Source: Escherichia coli
GTDB taxonomy: Bacteria; Pseudomonadota; Gammaproteobacteria; Enterobacterales; Enterobacteriaceae
DNA: 64,000 bases
NCBI RefSeq assembly: GCF_009931435.1
Contig: NZ_CP043414.1
Direction: 5' to 3' (one strand)
Shown: one piece after another, positions 2,854 to 60,448 of the stretch
How the letters are laid out: each line of letters starts with the position of its first letter
Position numbering within the stretch: position 1 is the stretch's first letter
Program-made: the position numbers and the translations under genes
Notes under the pieces: generated by a model
The model's input: only the letters and a program-made list of their open reading frames with translations
Databases searched by the model: none
Told to the model about the DNA's origin: nothing

Positions 2854-3228
2854 ATGACCATGTACGCAACGCTTGAAGAAGCCATTGACGCTGCACGCGA
2901 AGAATTTCTTGCAGACAACCCCGGCATCGACGCCGAAGACGCGAATGTGCAACAGTTCAATGCCCAAAAATACGTTTTGCAGGACGGCGACATCATGTGG
3001 CAAGTTGAGTTTTTTGCCGACGAAGGGGAAGAAGGTGAATGTTTACCCATGCTTAGCGGTGAAGCCGCGCAAAGTGTCTTTGACGGCGACTATGATGAGA
3101 TAGAGATCCGCCAGGAGTGGCAGGAAGAGAATACATTACATGAATGGGACGAGGGGGAATTTCAGCTTGAGCCACCGCTGGATACGGAAGAAGGACGGGC
3201 AGCGGCTGATGAGTGGGATGAACGCTAA
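2854..3228 (+). CDS. msyB: Acidic protein MsyB
   Basis: ORF 2851..3228 begins with GTG; ATG at 2854 gives MTMYATLEEAIDAAREEF..., 124 aa, highly acidic (D/E rich); AGGGAGAA RBS upstream. Confidence 0.9.
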   Translation: MTMYATLEEAIDAAREEFLADNPGIDAEDANVQQFNAQKYVLQDGDIMWQVEFFADEGEEGECLPMLSGEAAQSVFDGDYDEIEIRQEWQEENTLHEWDEGEFQLEPPLDTEEGRAAADEWDER

Positions 3229-8091: not shown

Positions 8092-9249
8092 ATGAATCCA
8101 GTACCCGCGCAACGTGAATATTTCCTCGACTCCATCCGCGCCTGGCTGATGTTGTTAGGGATCCCTTTTCATATTTCTTTAATCTATTCGAGCCATACAT
8201 GGCATGTGAATAGCGCCGAACCGTCATTGTGGCTGACCCTTTTTAATGACTTCATCCACTCGTTCCGCATGCAGGTATTTTTCGTTATATCCGGGTACTT
8301 TTCTTACATGCTTTTTTTACGCTATCCCCTGAAAAAATGGTGGAAAGTACGTGTCGAACGTGTAGGGATCCCGATGTTAACAGCCATCCCCCTACTGACA
8401 TTGCCGCAATTTATTATGCTGCAATACGTCAAAGGGAAAGCGGAAAGTTGGCCTGGGCTGTCATTGTATGACAAATATAATACGTTGGCCTGGGAATTAA
8501 TATCACACCTGTGGTTTTTACTGGTGTTAGTGGTCATGACGACGCTGTGCGTATGGATATTTAAACGCATCAGAAATAATTTAGAAAATTCTGATAAAAC
8601 GAATAAAAAATTCTCGATGGTAAAATTATCGGTGATTTTTTTGTGCCTCGGCATCGGTTATGCGGTAATAAGAAGAACGATTTTTATTGTGTATCCACCC
8701 ATTCTGAGTAACGGCATGTTCAATTTTATTGTCATGCAAACGTTATTTTATTTGCCGTTCTTTATCCTCGGCGCACTGGCTTTCATTTTCCCTCATCTTA
8801 AAGCCTTGTTTACCACGCCGTCTCGTGGCTGTACCCTTGCAGCAGCATTGGCGTTTGTCGCTTATTTACTCAACCAGCGCTATGGCAGTGGCGATGCCTG
8901 GATGTACGAAACCGAGTCGGTGATCACCATGGTCCTCGGTCTGTGGATGGTGAATGTGGTCTTCTCCTTCGGCCACCGTTTGCTTAACTTCCAGTCAACG
9001 CGGGTAACTTACTTTGTTAACGCATCGCTATTTATCTATCTGGTTCACCACCCGTTAACGCTGTTTTTCGGCGCGTACATTACACCGCACATCACCTCCA
9101 ACTGGCTTGGTTTTCTCTGTGGCCTGATATTCGTAGTAGGGATTGCGATAATTCTGTATGAAATTCATTTACGCATCCCGTTACTGAAGTTTTTGTTCTC
9201 TGGTAAACCGGTTGTTAAGCGTGAGAACGATAAAGCACCAGCCCGTTAA
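8092..9249 (+). CDS. opgC: OPG succinyltransferase OpgC (MdoC), membrane acyltransferase family
   Basis: 385-aa ORF, ATG at 8092, multi-pass membrane protein; divergent from opgGH; recognised as OpgC. Confidence 0.9.
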
Positions 9250-9256
9250 GCCGCGT

Positions 9257-10687
9257 TTACAATAACCATTCCACAGGCAATATCGACGCCAGTCTGACCA
9301 TAACCCGCTTCCAGAAACTGGTAGCGGGTTCTTTTTTGAGAACAATTTCTTTCTTTGCATGACGATCAACCCAGTTGATCCGCCCCCACCTGTCCAGACG
9401 GAGCTGCCAGGCCGCATCATACTGGCTCTGAATAAAGCGTTTATCAATTAACTGTGCCAGCGTTTCGCTCTCTATCACGAACCCCATTTCAGTATTGAGC
9501 AATGTCGAACGTGGATCGAAATTGAAAGAGCCAATAAACACCGTTTTACCATCGATGCTAAAGGTTTTAGCATGCAGGCTGGCACCGGAATTACCGGTTA
9601 TGCCGCGATCGTGTAACGTACTACTTTGTTCACGCGTCGGCTTGAGTTCATATAACTCCACGCCGTAGCGGAGCAATTTTTTGCGCCAGCGCGCGTATCC
9701 GGCATGGACGACAGCAACATCGTTAGCGGCAAGAGAATTGGTTAGGATCGCAATCTTTACCCCTTTTCTCACCATCCGTAAGAGTTGCGCCACACCTGCG
9801 CGTGTCGGTACAAAATAGGAAGAGATAATATCGATGCGTTCACTGGGTGAGCCCATGATATCGAACAGGCGCTGCGGTAACAGTGAATGCCGTTTTGCCT
9901 TGCCTTCCCCTTTCGCCGGATCATCACTTAATAAACGTGTTTTCGCCCAGATAAGCGGCAACGTTCCATCAACCAGATGATTTATAAACGGGCTGGATTC
10001 CATTTTGCGTAAATAACGATGCGTCATGGCATCGTCATGCCAGGAGGCGGGTAACTCGATGCGATCCGCCATTTCACCTTCCGGGACATCCAGCACCTGC
10101 TGTAAGGGTGAAACCGATTTACAATACCAGTAGCGGGCGAAATCATCGGCAACGTCCTCTACAACTGGTCCTATTGCCATGACATCTAAATCCGAAAAAA
10201 GTGGCTCTTCCCCTGCACCAAAATAGGCATCACCAATATTTCGTCCCCCCACCAGAGTCACCACACCATCGACGGTGAAACTTTTATTGTGCATACGGCG
10301 ATTGAGACGGGAAAAGTCGGTGATATAACCAAGCGGACGTAGCAGTCGAAACGAAAAAGGATTAAAAAGCCGGACTTCAATGCGGGGATGACTGTCAAGC
10401 AAGCGTAAAATGTCGTCAAGTCCGGGTGTATTGTTGTCGTCCAGCAACAAACGGACGCGAACGCCACGCTTTGCTGCGGCTAACAGGGCGGAAAACAGTA
10501 ACCGACCCGACATATCGTCCTGCCAGATGTAATACTGAACATCCAGCGTATGCTCTGCCATTTCGGCCAGACGATACCGGGCGGCAAACGCATCCAGACT
10601 TTTCTCCAGAGGGAAAAGGCCACACTGACCGGGATGTTGCGAACACAGTGGCAGCACCGCGCTCGCCAGCCGGGGCAAATCATTCAT
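9257..10687 (-). CDS. clsC: Cardiolipin synthase C (phospholipase D family) ClsC/YmdC
   Basis: ORF 9257..10747; start placed at ATG giving [17 protein letters not shown]... (putative lipoprotein signal); two PLD-type HxK motifs (HNKSF, HAKTF). Exact start uncertain. Confidence 0.85.
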
Positions 10688-11213
10688 CTCCTTGTTGGGT
10701 AAGGAGTCTTTCGTAGAGGTGGGCGTTTTCTTCATCATAACAGACAAAGTATACCTGTTCGGGTAAAGCGTGACGGGTAATAAATTCTGAAACGGTTTTT
10801 ACTGCGATTTCAGCCGCTGCCGCACGAGGGTAACCATAAACCCCAGTACTAATTGCAGGAAAAGCCACTGACGTATAGCTGTTTGCCGCCACCAGTCGTA
10901 GGCTATTGAGATAGGCATCCTGCAAAAGCTGGTCTTCGTTTTGTTCACCACCACGCCAGACTGGCCCGACGGTGTGCACTACGGCTTTAGCGGGAAGATC
11001 GCCTGCAAGCGTAATAACGGCATGCCCCGTAGGGCAATCGCCCTGCTGTTGCCTGACTTTTAAACAGGCATCCAGAAGGGCCGGACCCGCTGCGCGATGA
11101 ATGGCTCCATCGACGCCGCCGCCTCCCATTAATGACGGATTAGCCGCATTCACAATCACATCAACGGCCAGTTTGGTAATATCACCCTGCACAACATGAA
11201 TACGCGTTTTCAT
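10680..11213 (-). CDS. ymdB: Macrodomain protein YmdB (O-acetyl-ADP-ribose deacetylase)
   Basis: 177-aa [28 protein letters not shown]...; macro-domain signature; stop overlaps clsC start (ATGAATGA), implying an operon. Confidence 0.92.
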
Positions 11214-17417: not shown

Positions 17418-18155
17418 TTAAAGGTCTGCAAATTCCGCAATCGGTGCCATACCACGAGATTCAAGGAAGTTCAGTAAGCGGCGCGGAGAAACATTCAAAA
17501 TGCGCTCTGGCGGAAAATCTACCGCGTCGAGGATTTTAAGACACTCTTCAAATTCACCCATGGTAAACGCGGTGTGAGAATCCGAGCCTAATGCCACCCA
17601 ACCTCCAGCGTCACGTACCGCTGCGGCTACCGCACGACAGTTGTCTTCACTGCCCTTACGTGAGTGTAAAAATGAGGAATTATTGATTTCCAGCGCCACC
17701 TGATGTTTCGCAGCTGCTTCAGCAACGGCTTTAACATCTATTTCATATTTCGGATTTCCGGGATGGCTTATTATATGCACATTGCCGCTGGCGATAGTGG
17801 CGATCATCGCTTGCGTATTGGTCGCTTTGTCATGCGGCGCAAACACCGGCTCATGAAAACCGGCAATAATCAGATCCAGCGAATCAAACATTTTGCCACT
17901 GCAGTCAATTTCACCGTCAACATTTTTAATGTTAGCTTCGATCCCGCGCAGGATCCCAACCCCATCAACCACTCGCGGCCAGATACGCATGTTAATGAAG
18001 TGCCAGTGATGCGGCGCATCTTCCATATCCGGGCCATGATCGGTGATCGCAAAAAGTTTAATGCCCTTTTGTTTGGCCTGGGCAATGTAATCACTCAATG
18101 TGCTATATGCATGCGTGCTAGCAACGGTATGCATATGAAGGTCGACGGGATACAT
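17418..18155 (-). CDS. ycdX: PHP-domain metal-dependent phosphoesterase YcdX
   Basis: 245-aa ORF starting [14 protein letters not shown] (PHP-domain His motif). Confidence 0.9.
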
Positions 18156-18209
18156 AACTCTCTCCTGTATTCAATTCCCGCCAAGGATAGCAGGAAACCT
18201 GATGCTTTA

Positions 18210-19187
<978 letters not shown>

Positions 19188-29559: not shown

Positions 29560-30831
29560 TTAAACCCGCAATAATGCGCTTCCGAGATAATCGCTCGCGT
29601 CCTTCACCCCCGGCAGCGCAAAAAAATAACCGCCGCCGATGGGTTTAACGTATTCCTCCAGCGCTTCACCATTGAGCCTTTTTTGTACTGTCAGGAAGCC
29701 CTTTTCCAGATCGTGTTGGTAGCAGACAAACAGCAACCCCATATCCAGTTGCCCGGAATTGGTGACGCCCAACGAATAACTGTAGCCACGACGCAGCATC
29801 AGGCTGGACTCGCTCTCCGCCGTGCGGGGATTCGCCAGCCGGATATGGCTGTCCAGCGCGATCACCTTCCCTTCCGGATCACTGGCATAATCGGGAACAT
29901 CATGCTCATGCTGCATTCCCAGCGGCGCACCGGTTTGCTTATCGCGACCAAAAATTGTCTGCTGTTCTTTCAGCGGCGTTCTGTCCCAAAATTCCACTCG
30001 AAACTGAATCAAACGCACCGCCTGGTAGCTGCCACCGATTGTCCACGCAGGCTCCTGCTGATCTGCCGTTACCCACACCACTTTTTGCATCAACTTATCA
30101 TTCTGGCTATCGGGATTGGCAGTGCCGTCTTTGAAACCCAGCAAATTAATCGGCGTCTCTTTGCCTTTACTACGCGCTGCGTGATCGGAAATAAACCCTT
30201 CCCGCTTCCAGCGCACACTGAGCAAATCCGGCGTATGTTTGATGATATCGCGCAGCGCATGGATCACCGTGTCCTGGGTGTTGGCGCAAATTTGTAGCAA
30301 CACATCACCATGACATAACGCCGCATCCAGCGAGTCGTTGGGGAAACGCGTCATCTTCTGCAACTTTTTCGGCATCTGTGGCGCAAGACCAAACCGTTCA
30401 TCAAACAACGAGTGACCAACTGACAACGTGATGGTGAGATTGTCGGGCGCAATGTAGCCGCCAAGAATGCCGGAATCGAGTGGTGGCAGGCGCGGATTTG
30501 GCGTTTCTGGTGCTGCTCCGCCCTGAGTCAGAAAAGCAAAACGCTGAGTCAACAAGCGAAACAATCGCTCAAGATCAGCTTTATCGCTGGCAAGCACATC
30601 AAACGCCACCAGCATCATTGCCGCCTGCTGCGGCGTCAGAATACCCGCCTGATGTTCGCCATAAAACGGCTGCGCTTCACTGCGCGCATCCGGTGAAAGC
30701 GTCCCCGGCGCACTTTGCGTTTTTTGAGCATGCGCTACCGGACAACTTCCTGCCAGTGCCAGCGCGCCAATCCCTTTCAGTAAACGTCGGCGTGACGGTT
30801 CATTCACGCCGTTTTCATCTTCATACTGCAT
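29560..30831 (-). CDS. efeB: Dye-decolorizing (DyP) peroxidase / deferrochelatase EfeB, Tat-secreted
   Basis: 423-aa ORF with twin-arginine signal ([17 protein letters not shown]); recognised as EfeB/YcdB. Confidence 0.95.
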
Positions 30832-30836
30832 AACGC

Positions 30837-31964
30837 TTAATCCAGTCCCAGCACACCACGAAGTTGCGCCAGATCTTCCGCCAGCGCAGTAATCGGCCCT
30901 TTCAGCGCATTACGGTCGGCATCGGTCAGCTTGTCGTAAGTTTCATAACCGTCTTTGGTTCGGTATTTCGCCAGAATGGTATCTACCTTTTTGAAGTTGG
31001 CATCGACTTTTGCCAGCAGTTCCGGGTTGGCTTTTTGCAGTTGCGGACGCAGCAGATCGACAATTTTCTGCGAGCCTTCAACGTTAGCCTGGAAGTCCCA
31101 CAGATCGGTGTGGCTGTAGCGATCTTCTTCACCGCTGATTTTGCTGGCTGCCACTTCCTCAATCAGTCCGGCTGCGCCGCCGACCACTTTTGAAGGTGGG
31201 AAAGCCAGTTCACTGATCCGTTTTTGTAAATCGACCACATCGGTATAAAGCTGGTCAGCATACTGATCCATTCCTTTGGTGGTGTTGTCGCCAAACAATG
31301 CTTTTTCCAGACGGTGGAAACCGGTGAATTTCGGATCGCCGGCTTTTTGCTCGTAATCATCTTCACGGGCGTCAATGCTACCATCCAGATCAGAGAACAG
31401 CTCAGCAATCGGTTCAATGCGCTCATAGTGCTGGCGCGTCGGCGCATACAGTGCTTTCGCTTTTTCGATATCGCCTGCTTTAATAGCGTCGGTAAATGCT
31501 TTGGTGTCGGTCACCAGCTGCGTGGTTTCCGCCATGACATACGCTTTATATGCAGTAATTGCACCACCAAGACTTAACAGCGCATCACTTTGCGTCGCAT
31601 CCGCCGTTGCTTCACCTTTAACGATCAACTTCCCTTTCGGGTTAGTCAGCAGACCGCAGGTCATATCGTATTCGCCAGGCTGTAAATTCGCCGTCATTTT
31701 CTGGCTAAAACCAGGGGCGATATTTTCCCGCTCTTCCACCACCATCACGCCTTTGAGGATCTCCCACTCCAGCGCCTTCTGGCTGTGGTTCTGAATAATG
31801 AACTGTGTTTTCCCGGCGTTAACCGTAATGGTCATCGGTTCGCACTGTTTATCCGTCACGGTCACTTTGACCTGCGGAACATCAGCAGCGTTAGCCATAA
31901 AAGCAGAGGAGAACAGCGCAGCCACGCTTAATTGCAGTGCACTATGGCGGAAGTTAATGGTCAT
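30837..31964 (-). CDS. efeO: Periplasmic iron uptake protein EfeO (cupredoxin + M75 peptidase-like)
   Basis: 375-aa ORF with signal peptide; recognised as EfeO/YcdO. Confidence 0.95.
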
Positions 31965-32021
31965 GACGAGACTATCCCTTTAAAGTATGTTGTAACTAAG
32001 CAAGAGTTTGCGTCATTTTCG

Positions 32022-32852
32022 TTACGCGGAGCGAGACGCTGTCGCCCCTGCGCGCGGCGGCAGAGTAAATGCCACCAGCGCCGGGATGAGATAAATAAAC
32101 CAGACGGCGACTTCGCTGACGCTCGGCGCTTCCTGATAACCAAAGATACCTTCCATCAGCGTACCGAACAGCGAGTGAGTTGAGAGCACCGCGCTCATAT
32201 CGAAGGCGATTTCCTGAAAGTGGTTCCACAGCCCGGCTTCATGAAACGCGCGAATAGCACCAGCAGCCAGCCCTGCGGCGACGAAGAGAATAAACAGGCT
32301 GGTCCATTTAAAAAACGCGCCAAGATTGAGGCGAATACCGCCCCAGTAGAGCAGGAAGCCGAGCACCACGGCTGTAGCAAGACCGAGCATTGCACCCAGC
32401 GGAGGCCAGATCCCGACATCTTGTTGAAACGCCGCCAGCAGGAAAAAGACCGACTCCAGTCCTTCCCTTGCAACGGCAAAAAAGACCATCATCACCAGCG
32501 CCCAGCCATGATGATTCCCACGCTGCAATGCGCTATCGACTGCCTGTTCCAGTTGCACTTTGACGTTGCGCGACACTTTACGCATCCAGAAAACCATCCA
32601 GGTGAGGATCACCACGGCAATCACCGCCACGATACCTTCGAACAATTCCTGCTCTTTTTGCGGAAATTCGCCGGTGGTTTCATTAATGAAGATACCCAGC
32701 CCCAGGCACAACGCAGCGGCTAGCAACACGCCAATCCACATGACACCAATCCATCGACCTCGCTGGGTACGCTTAAGATAGCTGGCAATCAGGCTGACAA
32801 TCAGCGCGGCTTCAAGTCCTTCGCGCAACATAATGAGAAACGGAACAAACAT
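32022..32852 (-). CDS. efeU: Ferrous iron permease EfeU (FTR1 family), apparently intact
   Basis: ORF 32022..32861; start at MFVPFLIMLREGLEA gives 276 aa with both REGLE motifs (REGLEA, REGLES) and no frameshift. Confidence 0.93.
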   Translation of the reverse strand: MFVPFLIMLREGLEAALIVSLIASYLKRTQRGRWIGVMWIGVLLAAALCLGLGIFINETTGEFPQKEQELFEGIVAVIAVVILTWMVFWMRKVSRNVKVQLEQAVDSALQRGNHHGWALVMMVFFAVAREGLESVFFLLAAFQQDVGIWPPLGAMLGLATAVVLGFLLYWGGIRLNLGAFFKWTSLFILFVAAGLAAGAIRAFHEAGLWNHFQEIAFDMSAVLSTHSLFGTLMEGIFGYQEAPSVSEVAVWFIYLIPALVAFTLPPRAGATASRSA

Positions 32853-32908
32853 GCCACCCACCCTTAAACGTTTTTCTGAGTCAATCTATGCAAAGAAAAG
32901 TAAATCGC

Positions 32909-32970
32909 AGTGATAGCGATTATCATTACGGTGAAGAAAAACACAAGCGGAATGTAGTGATAATGATGAG
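32909..32970 (-). promoter_or_regulatory. Fur box-like sequences in the efeUOB promoter region
   Basis: Minus-strand TAATGATAATCGCTATCA (32911-32928) resembles Fur consensus GATAATGATAATCATTATC; second GTGATAATGATGAG at 32957-32970. Confidence 0.55.
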
Positions 32971-32998
32971 GAAATGTAAATTTTTTTTGAGAGAAAAT

Positions 32999-33027
32999 GC
33001 AGAGGGCAATCACTGATTGCCCTCTGC
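32999..33027 (-). terminator. Strong hairpin 3' of putP (13-bp stem gcagagggcaatc / gattgccctctgc)
   Basis: Near-perfect 13-bp inverted repeat about 45 nt downstream of the putP stop; T-run is weak. Confidence 0.5.
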
Positions 33028-54626: not shown

Positions 54627-55798
54627 TATTTTTCTTCCTTCTTATCGCCGTGAGCCTTACCTGCGGTATCAGACGCATTCATTTGCAGATATTTCAGCAA
54701 GGTGCGTTCTTCACGTTTATCGAGGCTGGTAAAGCCAATCATGCCGTTGAGCGTGCCAATCCAACCATTAGCGTCGAAGTGGGCGATTTCCGGTGCGCCG
54801 TGGCATTGATTACAGGTGCCGTTGTACAGCGAATCCGCATAAGCCCAGATCGGTTTGATATCGTTCACCATGTCGCCTTTCTTCATCCACGCGGTGGCCT
54901 GCAATTTGCTCCACTCGGTATTGGTGTCGGCAACGGTGGTTTTCTCCAGCGTTTTCACCTGCTGCTGAACATCGCCACGAATCGAAGCAACAAAGATGCG
55001 TTTGCCAGGGAACTGGGTGAGTACACGCTGACGTCCTGCGCTTTCCGTCCAGCCAGTGATTTCAATTTGCAGCCAGTCGCCGTCACGTTTAAGGACTTTC
55101 ACTTCCGAAGCAGGCAGCAGAGAACCAGACGCTTCTTTATCGCCTTTCGCCGCATAAATTGGCTTAATATCAATGGAGTACAGCGTGTCACCACTATCAT
55201 TAGCACTGGCACGCAGCTCATCGAACTGCTTACGGAAGCCACTACTCATATCAGGTAACTGGTGGGCAATACCTTTATGACAGTCGATGCAGGATTGATT
55301 ATCTTTCGCTGCCACCTTCATCTGACGCGCCGCTTCAGGATGCTGCTTCGCATGATCCATCGCGTCGTAGTTATGGCAGGAGCGGCAGGTTGCCGAGTTG
55401 TTTTCTTTCATTCGCGCCCATTCACGCTCGGCAAGTTCCGCGCGTTTGGCTTCGAATTTCTCAGGTGTATCAATGGAGTGGGCAATAAAGGTCTGGTAGA
55501 TGTCGTTGCTCGCTTCCAGTTTACGCTTCACCATGCCTGGAATATCCGGCGGGATATGGCAGTCATGGCATTCAGCTCGCACGCCGGAGGCGTTCTGGAA
55601 ATGCACCGACTGTTTATATTCTTCATACACCGGTTGCATACTGTGGCAACTGACACAAAATTCGGTTGTGCTGGTGACTTTGATCCCCACGTGAGGTAAC
55701 ACAATCAGCGCAATGCCAATCACAATCCCAATAGCGACCAGCGCCAGTACCGACCAACGAGCACTGGGTCGGCGTAACGCGTTCCAGAGTTTCCGCAT
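54626..55798 (-). CDS. torC: Pentahaem c-type cytochrome TorC (NapC/NirT family)
   Basis: ORF 54626..55846; start at MRKLWNALRRPSARW gives 390 aa; five CxxCH haem motifs (CVSCH, CHDCH, CRSCH, CIDCH, CNQCH). Confidence 0.95.
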   Translation of the reverse strand: MRKLWNALRRPSARWSVLALVAIGIVIGIALIVLPHVGIKVTSTTEFCVSCHSMQPVYEEYKQSVHFQNASGVRAECHDCHIPPDIPGMVKRKLEASNDIYQTFIAHSIDTPEKFEAKRAELAEREWARMKENNSATCRSCHNYDAMDHAKQHPEAARQMKVAAKDNQSCIDCHKGIAHQLPDMSSGFRKQFDELRASANDSGDTLYSIDIKPIYAAKGDKEASGSLLPASEVKVLKRDGDWLQIEITGWTESAGRQRVLTQFPGKRIFVASIRGDVQQQVKTLEKTTVADTNTEWSKLQATAWMKKGDMVNDIKPIWAYADSLYNGTCNQCHGAPEIAHFDANGWIGTLNGMIGFTSLDKREERTLLKYLQMNASDTAGKAHGDKKEEK

Positions 55799-55846
55799 AA
55801 TAGCCCCTGTAAAATTATGGTTTAGTGAAGCGATCTTAATGAGCAA

Positions 55847-55909
55847 ATATGAACAGCGGCACTGGTCAGGATGAACGGCTTACGGCAGAATATGAACAGA
55901 TATGAACAG
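55847..55909 (-). promoter_or_regulatory. tor boxes (TorR binding decamers CTGTTCATAT) upstream of torCAD
   Basis: Plus-strand atatgaacag at about 55847, 55890 and 55900 plus degenerate ggatgaacgg at about 55869, giving four direct repeats between torC and divergent torR. Confidence 0.8.
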
Positions 55910-55927
55910 AATGAGTAAAACTCTCTG

Positions 55928-56620
55928 ATGCCACATCACATTGTTATTGTTGAAGATGAGCCGGTTACCCAGGCGCGATTACAAACCTACTTCACTCAGG
56001 AGGGGTATACGGTTTCCGTTACGGCGAGCGGTGCCGGGCTGCGTGAAATTATGCAAAACCAGCCAGTGGATTTAATTCTGCTGGATATCAATTTGCCCGA
56101 TGAAAATGGCCTGATGTTAACCCGCGCCCTGCGGGAACGTTCGACGGTGGGTATTATTCTGGTTACCGGACGCAGCGATCGGATTGACCGTATTGTTGGG
56201 CTGGAAATGGGCGCAGACGATTACGTCACCAAACCGCTGGAACTGCGCGAACTGGTGGTACGGGTGAAAAATCTGCTCTGGCGAATCGACCTCGCGCGAC
56301 AAGCTCAACCGCTCACTCAGGACAACTGCTATCGCTTTGCCGGTTATTGCCTGAATGTGTCGCGCCATACGCTGGAGCTTGATGGCGAACCGATTAAACT
56401 AACCCGCGCAGAGTATGAAATGTTGGTGGCATTTGTGACCAATCCGGGCGAAATTCTCAGCCGTGAACGTCTGCTGCGTATGCTTTCTGCGCGCCGGGTG
56501 GAAAACCCCGACCTGCGCACCGTCGATGTGTTAATTCGTCGTTTACGTCATAAACTCAGCGCGGATTTACTGGTAACACAACATGGCGAAGGTTATTTCT
56601 TAGCCGCTGATGTGTGCTGA
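55928..56620 (+). CDS. torR: Response regulator TorR (OmpR family)
   Basis: 230-aa ORF, ATG at 55928; receiver domain plus winged-helix output. Confidence 0.95.
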   Translation: MPHHIVIVEDEPVTQARLQTYFTQEGYTVSVTASGAGLREIMQNQPVDLILLDINLPDENGLMLTRALRERSTVGIILVTGRSDRIDRIVGLEMGADDYVTKPLELRELVVRVKNLLWRIDLARQAQPLTQDNCYRFAGYCLNVSRHTLELDGEPIKLTRAEYEMLVAFVTNPGEILSRERLLRMLSARRVENPDLRTVDVLIRRLRHKLSADLLVTQHGEGYFLAADVC

Positions 56621-57621
56621 TAAAAATAGACCGGACGAAATCCCCCTGGTGACAGCGAGCGGCGGATATGTTCGCGGTCGGCATTTTTCGGCGTCAGGAC
56701 TAAAATCGGTGGGCTGACATTATCAGACACCGATAGTCCCTGTAATTGCCTGATCGCTTGCTCAACCGCCAGTTCCCCCTGCCAGACCATTTGATCGCTG
56801 GCAGCCATGATCACTCTTCCCCGCTTTAGTCCGCGATACACCTGATGTGAAAGATAAAATGACACCACGGTCAGCGGCGTTTTCAGGTTACGCCCTTCAC
56901 CCATTGCCGCCTCTGCCGCAATCGCCGTTCCGGCCACAACGTCGATTTCTGGATGGCGCTCCAACATCTCCTGCAACAGGTTACGCTGGATTTCAATATC
57001 GTTGTCGCCGAGCGCAATATCGACAATACGCACCGGGCTTCCGGCAATGGCGGCGCGGAAACCCTCTACCATCTCCTTACTGCCCCCGGCGTTATCGGGG
57101 CCGGGCATCAACAGCACGTTCAGTGGTTTTCCGTGACTCCATTGCACCAGATATCGCCCTGGTTGATAGCCCATCTGAAACCACGGCACACCAACGCGGC
57201 TTTTCACCTGGGGAGCATCAATAGCATTTACCAGTTCGATCACCGGAAGACTTGCTACCTGCTTTTGCAGGTCGGGAAATGACGTCGTGCTACTTCCGAG
57301 CAAGATGGCCTCTGCACCCCACTGTTTGCACTGGTCGATTTGTGCTTGCTGGGTAGCCAACTGGCTGTAGCCGCCTGCCTCCAGCACTTTTAAATCCACA
57401 CCGTAGCGGCGAGCAGCCTCCTGCATACCATAGTTCAACGATAACCAGTATGAATCTTTCAGGCTGGGATAAAGCGCGCACAGTTTCCATGCGCGTTTGG
57501 CTTTAAGCGGCATAGAGGCTTGCACCGTGAAATGCTGCGCATCATGCCAGCGCAACAAGTTATCAGCCGAAAAACCAGGCCACATGAAAAGGGAAAGAAG
57601 TAACAATAGCAGTACGCGCAT
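56593..57621 (-). CDS. torT: Periplasmic TMAO-binding protein TorT
   Basis: 342-aa ORF with signal peptide ([19 protein letters not shown]); 3' end overlaps torR 3' end by 28 nt (convergent). Confidence 0.94.
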
Positions 57622-57703
57622 GATAGCCTCATCAATAATAAGGCTTTATGCTAGATGCATTCCGCTTTGCGACTCAACCTTTTTCACCTTAAGTACACTG
57701 ACC

Positions 57704-60448
57704 GTGAATTTAACCCTGACCCGAAGACTCTGGATGGGCTTTGCCCTGATGGCGCTGTTAACCCTGACCAGTACCCTGGTGGGATGGTACAACCTGCGCT
57801 TTATCAGCCAGGTGGAAAAAGACAATACTCAGGCATTGATTCCTACCATGAATATGGCGCGCCAGTTGAGCGAAGCCAGCGCCTGGGAACTTTTCGCCGC
57901 CCAGAACCTGACCAGTGCCGATAACGAAAAGATGTGGCAGGCGCAGGGGCGAATGCTCACCGCACAAAGCCTGAAGATTAACGCATTGCTGCAAGCGTTA
58001 CGGGAACAAGGGTTTGACACTACCGCTATTGAACAACAGGAGCAGGAGATCTCCCGTTCGTTACGTCAACAAGGGGAACTGGTGGGGCAGCGTTTGCAAC
58101 TGCGCCAGCAACAACAGCAACTCAGCCAGCAGATAGTCGCTGCTGCCGATGAGATCGCACGCCTGGCACAAGGTCAGGCGAATAATGCGGCAACCTCTGC
58201 CGGAGCGACCCAGGCCGGGATTTACGATTTGATCGAACAACATCAGCGTCAGGCCGCAGAAAACGCACTTGATCGGCTGATTGATATCGATCTTGAGTAC
58301 GTTAACCAGATGAATGAACTGCGCCTTAGCGCCCTGCGGGTGCAGCAAATGGTGATGAATCTGGGGCTGGAACAGATCCAGAAAAATGCGCCAACGCTGG
58401 AAAAGCAACTCAATAATGCGGTTAAAATTCTGCAACGTCGGCAAATACGCATTGAAGATCCCGGTGTTCGTGCACAGGTCGCGACAACGTTAACTACCGT
58501 TAGCCAATATAGCGATTTGCTGGCGCTGTATCAGCAGGACAGTGAAATCAGCAATCACCTGCAAACTCTCGCCCAAAATAACATCGCCCAGTTCGCGCAG
58601 TTTAGTAGCGAAGTCAGTCAACTGGTCGACACCATTGAGCTGCGTAATCAGCATGGCCTGGCGCATCTGGAAAAAGCCAGTGCACGCGGGCAATACAGCC
58701 TGTTATTGCTGGGGATAGTTTCTCTTTGCGCACTGATTCTGATCCTCTGGCGCGTGGTTTATCGCTCAGTCACGCGTCCCCTTGCCGAACAAACGCAGGC
58801 GCTGCAACGACTGCTGGACGGTGATATCAACTCCCCTTTCCCGGAAACCGCTGGCGTGCGGGAGCTGGACACCATCGGGCGGCTGATGGATGCGTTTCGC
58901 AGCAGTGTTCATGCACTGAATCGCCACCGCGAACAGCTGGCGGCGCAGGTCAAAGCGCGTACAGCTGAATTGCAGGAGCTGGTGATAGAACACCGACAGG
59001 CACGGGCGGAAGCAGAAAAAGCCAGCCAGGCAAAATCGGCGTTTCTGGCGGCGATGAGCCATGAGATCCGCACACCGCTGTACGGTATTCTCGGCACCGC
59101 GCAACTGCTGGCAGATAACCCCGCACTTAATGCCCAGCGTGATGATTTGCGGGCAATTACTGACTCTGGTGAATCGTTGCTGACCATCCTCAACGATATT
59201 CTCGATTATTCGGCTATCGAAGCAGGCGGCAAGAATGTTTCGGTCAGCGATGAGCCCTTTGAACCGCGCCCGCTGCTGGAAAGTACCCTGCAATTAATGA
59301 GCGGACGGGTGAAAGGTCGTCCGCTTCGCCTGGTAACTGAAATTGCCGACGATGTACCGACTGCGTTAATGGGCGATCCGCGGCGTATTCGTCAGGTTAT
59401 AACCAACCTGTTGAGCAACGCCCTGCGTTTCACCGACGAAGGGCACATTATCCTGCGTAGTCGCACTGATGGCGAACAATGGCTGGTCGAAGTGGAAGAC
59501 AGCGGCTGCGGTATTGATCCCTCGAAACTGGCTGAAATCTTCCAGCCATTTGTTCAGGTTAGCGGCAAACGCGGCGGCACCGGGCTGGGGCTGACTATCA
59601 GTAGCCGTCTGGCCCAGGCGATGGGCGGCGAACTCAGCGCCACCAGCACGCCGGAGGTTGGAAGCTGTTTTTGTTTACGCTTGCCGTTACGTATTGCCAC
59701 GGCACCCGTGCCAAAAACAGTCAATCAGGCGGTGCATCTGGACGGTTTACGTTTGCTGTTAATTGAAGATAACCCGCTAACCCAGCGAATTACCGTTGAG
59801 ATGCTGAACAACAGTGGTGCGCAGGTCGTTGCTGTTGGCAATGCCGCGCACGCGATAGAGACGTTGCAAAATAGCGAACCGTTTGCTGGGGCACTGGTGG
59901 ATTTTGATCTGCCGGATATCGACGGTATTACCCTTGCCCGACAACTGGTACAGCAATATCCGTCGCTGGTTTTGATTGGCTTTAGCGCCCATGTCATCGA
60001 CGAAACGTTGCGCCAGCGTACCAGTTCGCTATTTCACGGGATTATCCCTAAACCGGTGCCGCGTGAAGTACTCGGTCAGTTACTGGCGCACTATCTTCAA
60101 CTGCAAGTCAATAACGATCAACCGCTGGATGTATCGCAACTCAATGAAGATGCTCAGTTGATGGGGACGGAGAAGATCCACGAATGGCTGACATTATTTA
60201 AACAACATGCCCTGCCGCTTCTCGATGACATCGACATTGCCCGCGCCAGTCAGGATAGCGAGAAAATAAAGCGTGCTGCGCATCAGCTAAAAAGCAGTTG
60301 TTCGAGTCTGGGAATGCGTAGCGCCAGCCAGCTATGCGCACAACTGGAGCAGCAGCCATTATCTGCCCCCCTTCCACACGAAGAAATTACACGCAGTGTT
60401 GCCGCTCTGGAAGCATGGTTGAATAAGAAAGACCTGAACGCGATTTGA
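57704..60448 (+). CDS. torS: Hybrid sensor kinase TorS (HAMP, HisKA/HATPase, receiver, HPt)
   Basis: ORF 57497..60448; start placed at in-frame GTG 57704 ([20 protein letters not shown]...) giving 914 aa; phospho-acceptor motif [13 protein letters not shown] start is inferred. Confidence 0.9.

Follow-up and report, generated by a model that had tools for sequence, protein, structure and literature searches.

A 28-nucleotide tail-to-tail overlap of torR and torT in Escherichia coli, probably an old and passive arrangement of two genuine genes

Pairs of real genes that lie on opposite strands and overlap at their 3' ends are a described class in E. coli, where 58 convergent overlaps have been counted (Lillo and Krakauer 2007, PMC2174442). 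In such pairs any terminator must sit inside the coding sequence of the partner. The common members are 4-nt overlaps (CTAA, TTAA, CTAG or TTAG), which lie in the phase denoted 123:213; this phase accounts for only 18% of convergent overlaps of at least 5 nt, and a model based on mutation of a stop codon fits convergent overlaps generally (PMC2174442). At the level of RNA, convergent excludons are neighbors with overlapping transcripts, as catalogued with ExcludonFinder (PMC12288877). The mscL-arfA antisense pair is an example with a reported antisense RNA effect (PMC10070815). Rho is known to terminate untranslated and antisense RNA in E. coli (PMC7815308).

The torR and torT genes share features with each of these systems. 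Their overlap is an ordinary member of the known class, would be one of the 58 pairs counted, and is part of the standard annotation; as a convergent transcript overlap it has been catalogued too, torT-torR being itself on the excludon list. It lies in the 123:213 phase of the 4-nt overlaps; unlike them, the torR stop TGA reads as Gln on the torT strand and torT runs eight codons further. Unlike typical convergent pairs, it has an exact length that is conserved unusually deeply. It differs from the convergent-excludon model in that the coding sequences of torT and torR themselves overlap, which makes transcript overlap unavoidable and hence no sign of regulation. As at sites of Rho termination on untranslated RNA, the RNA past the torR stop is C-rich and G-poor, and a bicyclomycin-sensitive termination region has been reported there.

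The torR and torT genes and the anatomy of their overlap

We analysed a 64,000-nt stretch of E. coli DNA (contig NZ_CP043414.1 of assembly GCF_009931435.1), referred to in full as the window. It carries the tor locus in the order torD, torA, torC (all on the - strand), torR (+), torT (-), torS (+) and yccM (+), with torS divergent from and upstream of torT according to the annotation and the alignment to MG1655. The features of the junction are as follows.

55928-56620, + strand: torR, response regulator coding sequence, 230 residues; stop TGA at 56618-56620
56593-57621, - strand: torT, periplasmic TMAO-binding protein coding sequence, 342 residues; stop TAA is the reverse complement of 56593-56595
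56593-56620, both strands: tail-to-tail torR/torT overlap, 28 nt, read directly from the sequence
56591-56596, + strand: TorR Gly222-Tyr223 codons GGT TAT, whose antisense is the torT stop (TAA; TAG if Gly is GGC)
56617-56622, - strand: torT Tyr334-Gln335 codons TAT CAG, whose antisense contains the torR stop TGA

The original prediction placed a convergent overlap of 28 nt between torR and torT at this position, and the open reading frames, their translations and the RefSeq annotation agree with it to the base. The open reading frame list and translations place an in-frame TAA after the TGA stop of torR. In torR, the overlap comprises the third base of Gly222, the codons of Tyr223-Phe-Leu-Ala-Ala-Asp-Val-Cys230 and the stop. 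In torT, the shared bases are the third base of Tyr334, the codons of Gln335-His-Thr-Ser-Ala-Ala-Lys-Lys342 and the stop. Position 1 of one gene lies opposite position 2 of the other, and third positions lie opposite third positions, as at 56596 and 56599. With TAA as the torR stop, torT would have TAG in place of its Gln335 codon.

Both torR and torT are genuine protein-coding genes, and the names assigned to them from sequence are borne out by equivalog models and RefSeq. TorR has a receiver domain and a C-terminal winged-helix domain and matches NCBIfam NF008034 at full length (423.8 bits, cutoff 275; residues 1-230 to model positions 1-231 of 231), and its receiver domain (residues 1-121) is nearly identical to the chain in PDB 1zgz. 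TorT has a periplasmic-binding-protein fold, is encoded beside torS, and matches the TorT equivalog models NF008185 (489.1 bits, cutoff 200) and TIGR02955 (435 bits); it aligns with the TorT of PDB 3o1h at E = 4.6e-69, and its structure model has a mean pLDDT of 90.4. The pair thus consists of two real frames, with both stops in the shared DNA, and is reproducible in orthologous loci.

Within E. coli the junction is close to universal among complete genomes. RefSeq annotates the same 28-nt overlap in strains 24A16CRGN010 (the closest complete genome, 99.3% identical), Ecol_AZ162 (chosen as a typical strain) and MG1655, where torT occupies 1056261-1057289 and torR 1057262-1057954. Positions 55701-57800 of the window align to MG1655 at 95.95% identity, with 85 mismatches and zero gaps, so the stop positions are upheld by alignment, and no earlier in-frame stop or sequence difference abolishes the overlap. 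A 141-nt junction query matched 5415 of 5426 complete E. coli genomes, each match covering at least 80% of the query, and among the matches listed all had annotated torT and torR. TorT is 342 residues long in 119 of the 120 best clusters, which are near-identical E. coli proteins, and 352 residues in the other. An annotation or sequencing artefact, in which one of the genes would end earlier and leave no overlap, is ruled out by the full-length equivalog matches of both frames, the ungapped alignment, the identical ends in the RefSeq records checked and the recurrence of the same ends in distant genera (see below); nothing was found in its favor, and we regard it as vanishingly improbable.

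The window itself is unusually divergent for E. coli: identity of at least 99% across torR-torT was found in only 2 of 5417 matching genomes, and the best match to the efeUOB region, checked at 30000-33000, was 98.0%. These values suggest that the complete E. coli genomes include few members of the lineage to which the window belongs. In strain 24A16CRGN010 an NAD(P)-dependent oxidoreductase gene is split by an IS4-like ISVsa5 element (17568-18898 of its retrieved locus, L084), and this insertion is absent from the window (site at ~18626-18634). In the clinical strain Ecol_AZ162, torS is a frameshifted pseudogene (locus L002, 2905 onwards), with torT and torR intact.

By our reading of the annotation, torR/torT is the sole overlapping pair among roughly ten convergent pairs in the window. 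Others end close together: msyB/yceK at 3228/3229 (gap 0 nt), opgC (mdoC)/clsC at 9249/9257 (gap 7 nt) and pgaD/phoH at ~28075/28125 (gap ~49 nt), and all three are on the same MG1655 list of convergent transcript overlaps as torT-torR (PMC12288877). RefSeq annotates a same-strand overlap longer than that of torR/torT where ymdB ends and clsC begins (~59 nt, ~10680-10738); the longest clsC open reading frame in the window extends to 10747.

Junctions in other lineages and the length of the overlap

To place the overlap in its wider context we took a TorT alignment from a representative search, scanned one genome per species, and located the torT and torR ends at each locus, with 80 loci listed. 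The same 28 nt were found in 13 further lineages, covering seven genera and one metagenomic lineage. The junctions found were as follows.

28-nt overlap: Escherichia
28-nt overlap: Citrobacter werkmanii, C. braakii, Citrobacter sp. On2M and Citrobacter sp. MGH106
28-nt overlap: Salmonella enterica subsp. arizonae and subsp. diarizonae
28-nt overlap: Providencia burhodogranariea and P. vermicola
28-nt overlap: Pragia fontium
28-nt overlap: Budvicia diplopodorum and B. aquatica; TorT 47-54% identical
28-nt overlap: Parendozoicomonas callyspongiae (L063), non-enterobacterial; TorT 42% and TorR 55% identical
28-nt overlap: one metagenomic lineage (P0123; contigs L085 and L086); TorT 61% identical
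21-nt overlap in another phase: Serratia sp. H1w; unrelated TorT tail
8-nt overlap: Cognaticolwellia
Gap of 18-60 nt: Colwellia, Amphritea and Psychromonas
Gap of ~500-640 nt: Aeromonas and one MAG
torR not adjoining torT: all Vibrio and Photobacterium loci among the matches listed

Consideration of the reading phase gives a mechanical account of the constant length. In this phase an antisense stop requires a Tyr codon preceded by a TorR codon with T or C in its third position, or a His or Gln codon preceded by one with T there, and in most 28-nt lineages the last seven residues of TorR are encoded by no such pair of codons. In Citrobacter, Providencia and Salmonella the last TorR residue is Tyr, and these lineages escape an antisense stop because the preceding Val codon ends in a purine. 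Once a torT frame has passed the torR stop, the first place where it can end is thus at the Gly-Tyr codons, and the overlap measures 1 + 3 + 21 + 3 = 28 nt. In taxa without the overlap, torR ends in TAA or TAG preceded by a pyrimidine; an antisense frame would meet a stop there that caps torT at a 4-nt overlap; in the overlap taxa it is TGA, or TAA after a purine, and the antisense frame is open as far as the Gly-Tyr codons.

[quoted passage not shown] The deep conservation of 28 nt can be explained in this way, because the torT stop sits in the antisense of the invariant Gly-Tyr codons of TorR. Once formed, the overlap should also resist insertions and deletions, because any indel within it would frameshift both genes and its length would thus be locked. 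Among the surveyed junctions no indels were found inside the overlap; two-codon deletions lie just upstream of it in Citrobacter On2M and Providencia.

The ancestral junction may have been a short spacer or a 4-nt overlap, and replacement of the torR stop TAA by TGA, a single change, would have turned a torT TAG into CAG (Gln335), extending torT to the next antisense stop. This scenario is argued by parsimony rather than by tree reconstruction; it is consistent with the stop-codon-mutation model, and the 28-nt overlap may have originated repeatedly and independently, for example in Parendozoicomonas. In that genus the overlap could have been inherited from a common ancestor, acquired when both genes were transferred together, or formed independently by the same extension of the frame to the Gly-Tyr codons. 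In Providencia (loci L006 and L008), TorT is 72% and TorR 85-90% identical to the window, and the tails are of the Citrobacter type, with TorT ending in QYTSAAKK and TorR in DVY; the tor regulatory genes seem closer than expected for Morganellaceae, and this similarity suggests horizontal transfer.

No reversion to a 4-nt overlap was seen in the 28-nt lineages among the 80 loci listed. The absence of this change, although a single torR-silent TGA-to-TAA substitution would suffice, may hint at weak selection keeping the TorT tail. A related argument, that torR always ends in TGA where TAA would truncate TorT, was discarded as evidence of selection, as it is circular once the sample is conditioned on the 28-nt overlap.

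The two C-termini

The original prediction also held that the overlap implies constraint on both C-termini, and this did not survive comparison. The C-terminus of TorR, HGEGY followed by seven residues, is kept in all surveyed taxa with or without the overlap, and the TorR alignment shows no variation at H219, E221, G222 or Y223. In the TorR model, beta strands at residues 215-218 and 222-225 form the terminal hairpin of the winged helix, and full-length OmpR-family structures align as far as residues 224-230. By the alignments and the structure model, TorR is the sole visibly constrained partner, and for reasons of its own: the last strand of this hairpin and a short tail are encoded within the overlap.

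Comparison of eight torR sequences from Escherichia, Citrobacter and Salmonella points the same way. At third positions, diversity is 0.460 within the overlap against 0.471 in the rest of the gene (37th percentile of 9-codon windows), and diversity at positions 1 and 2 is 0.067 and 0.083, respectively. No extra purifying constraint in the overlap was detected in these eight sequences, a comparison of low power that covers only nine codons. Little added mutual constraint is expected in this phase, because wobble position faces wobble position and synonymous change is free in both genes.

The end of TorT behaves differently. Similarity to distant homologues ends at residues 332-335, and the chain of Vibrio TorT in PDB 3o1h (304 residues) aligns up to its residue 303, opposite residue 332 of our query. 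The confidence of the TorT model is 83 at residues 331-340 and 41 at residues 341-342. In taxa without the overlap TorT ends 4-8 residues past the domain, in unrelated tails; in the overlap taxa the TorT tail is the antisense translation of the TorR tail and changes in step with it, as where TorR Cys230Tyr is paired with TorT His336Tyr. In Serratia H1w the same DNA is read in another frame, which replaces the TorT tail with an unrelated one. Taken together, the alignments and the model indicate that the last eight residues of TorT are a passenger extension past the folded binding domain.

A function of the tail itself bears directly on this reading. The tail, QHTSAAKK, might serve stability, export or contact with TorS, and selection on it might then maintain the 28-nt overlap. 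Such a function would fit the persistence of 28 nt in lineages whose TorT is only 42-54% identical, the absence from all sampled lineages of the torR-silent change that would truncate TorT, and the recurrence of a TS(A/S) core in the tail of most 28-nt lineages. The recurring motif, however, is simply the antisense translation of conserved TorR residues, and the different ends of TorT in taxa without the overlap, the wholly different tail of Serratia H1w, the position of the tail beyond the crystallised domain and the falling model confidence all argue against it. We therefore regard a function of the tail as unlikely, and favor the passive arrangement set out above.

Termination and the overlapping transcripts

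The overlap was further predicted to leave no room for separate terminators between the genes, and this stands: there is zero intergenic space, and a terminator scan of the junction and its surroundings detected no intrinsic terminator. The torT stop and the Gly-Tyr codons of TorR lie at the centre of an imperfect palindrome, which is listed below with the other features relevant to transcription.

55898, + strand: torR transcription start, homologue of MG1655 1057984 (PMC6131387 supplementary file 4)
56572-56619, both strands: imperfect palindrome, -15.8 kcal/mol (+) and -12.1 kcal/mol (-), z about -2.4 each
56700-57000, + strand: C-rich, G-poor stretch (C 0.29-0.41, G 0.17-0.23), resembling a Rho loading (rut) region
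57052, + strand: homologue of MG1655 1056830 (-), 432 nt past the torR stop

The palindrome at 56572-56619 folds better than shuffled sequences on both strands, and has a U-tract on neither. An RNAalifold consensus of 14 orthologous junctions contained no pairs; the covariation score of the palindrome (0.146) was equalled in 49 of 500 shuffles, and the number of pairs changed on both sides in 283 of 500. It is probably a by-product of the coding sequence, and it may yet act locally on pausing or on the stability of the RNA. As a bidirectional intrinsic terminator it was rejected, as it has no U-tract hairpin and no conservation or covariation. A second candidate, a long imperfect hairpin with a T5 run at ~56629-56690, folds no better than shuffles (z = -0.23) and was likewise rejected, as was an ancestral bidirectional terminator in the spacers of marine relatives, where one Colwellia MAG has a clean 9-bp hairpin and the others are weak. 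No Rfam match at E <=1 was found in 55000-58500.

Each transcript would be expected to continue into the partner gene as untranslated RNA. In MG1655, torR is transcribed alone from a start at 1057984, as a monocistronic unit (PMC6131387), and the RNA of its strand at 56700-57000 is untranslated and antisense to the 3' half of torT. From 80 to 380 nt past the torR stop the ratio of C to G reaches 2.3; the torT strand is weaker, with a ratio of up to 2.1 at 380 to 460 nt. The torR strand thus has the composition and setting of a Rho loading region, being untranslated, C-rich, G-poor and downstream of a stop. In MG1655 a bicyclomycin-sensitive (Rho) termination region antisense to torT peaks at 1056830 (-) (Rho score 4.34, p = 2.2e-5; PMC7815308 supplementary file 2). 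Reads upstream and downstream of it number 39 and 14 without bicyclomycin and 52 and 81 with it (PMC7815308), in direct RNA-seq analysed in 800-nt windows, with low counts and in one growth condition. Unlike the general mapping of Rho termination, the evidence at torR/torT covers a single strand and is coarsely resolved, from few reads; supplementary file 2 of PMC7815308 has no entry for the torT strand. The torR transcript at least is probably ended by Rho a few hundred nucleotides downstream of its stop, and we infer Rho termination on the torT strand as well.

The original prediction also raised transcriptional interference between torR and torT, and it is plausible; in the literature we found no evidence of mutual repression, of RNase III-dependent processing or of an effect on the expression of either gene. 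In its stronger form the two genes would be a functional convergent excludon with mutual repression by their overlapping transcripts, whether by colliding polymerases or by RNase III cutting the RNA duplex. Such an architecture would have been selected because it adjusts TorT relative to TorR and TorS and, through this, how strongly and how noisily torCAD is induced. The published MG1655 catalogue of 165 convergent excludons includes torT-torR, which means that the overlap was seen in no fewer than half of the 58 RNA-seq samples (PMC12288877). The entry of torR-strand RNA into antisense torT, where it is Rho-terminated, would suit such a function, as would the widespread convergent arrangement of the two genes; TorT and TorS are very scarce, and their ratio controls the output of the Tor system (PMC6814406). 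Against this, the listing carries no functional information for a pair whose transcripts must overlap, the torR-strand read counts are low, and no reciprocal expression data were found. In the Vibrio and Photobacterium loci torR lies apart from torT, which indicates that the regulators are not obligatorily paired, and the lock-in of the overlap already explains its conservation. We consider mutual repression of this kind quite improbable, and the passive arrangement of two genuine genes remains our preferred reading.

torR is reportedly subject to negative autoregulation by TorR (Ansaldi et al. 2000). A selected coupling device, in which the deeply conserved overlap and a torR read-through that Rho limits within antisense torT would let torR transcription set the abundance of TorT, seems very unlikely to us. 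If it did exist, the TorT:TorS ratio, which governs the noisy, bet-hedging expression of torCAD, would be affected.

What our analysis adds to the existing annotation is that the exact length of the overlap is kept from Escherichia to Budviciaceae and a relative of Endozoicomonas, with a mechanical cause, and that TorR alone is visibly constrained. In practical terms, any edit at the 3' end of either gene, be it a deletion, a tag or a fusion, alters the other gene, and a single G-to-A change at 56619 would truncate TorT and leave TorR unchanged.
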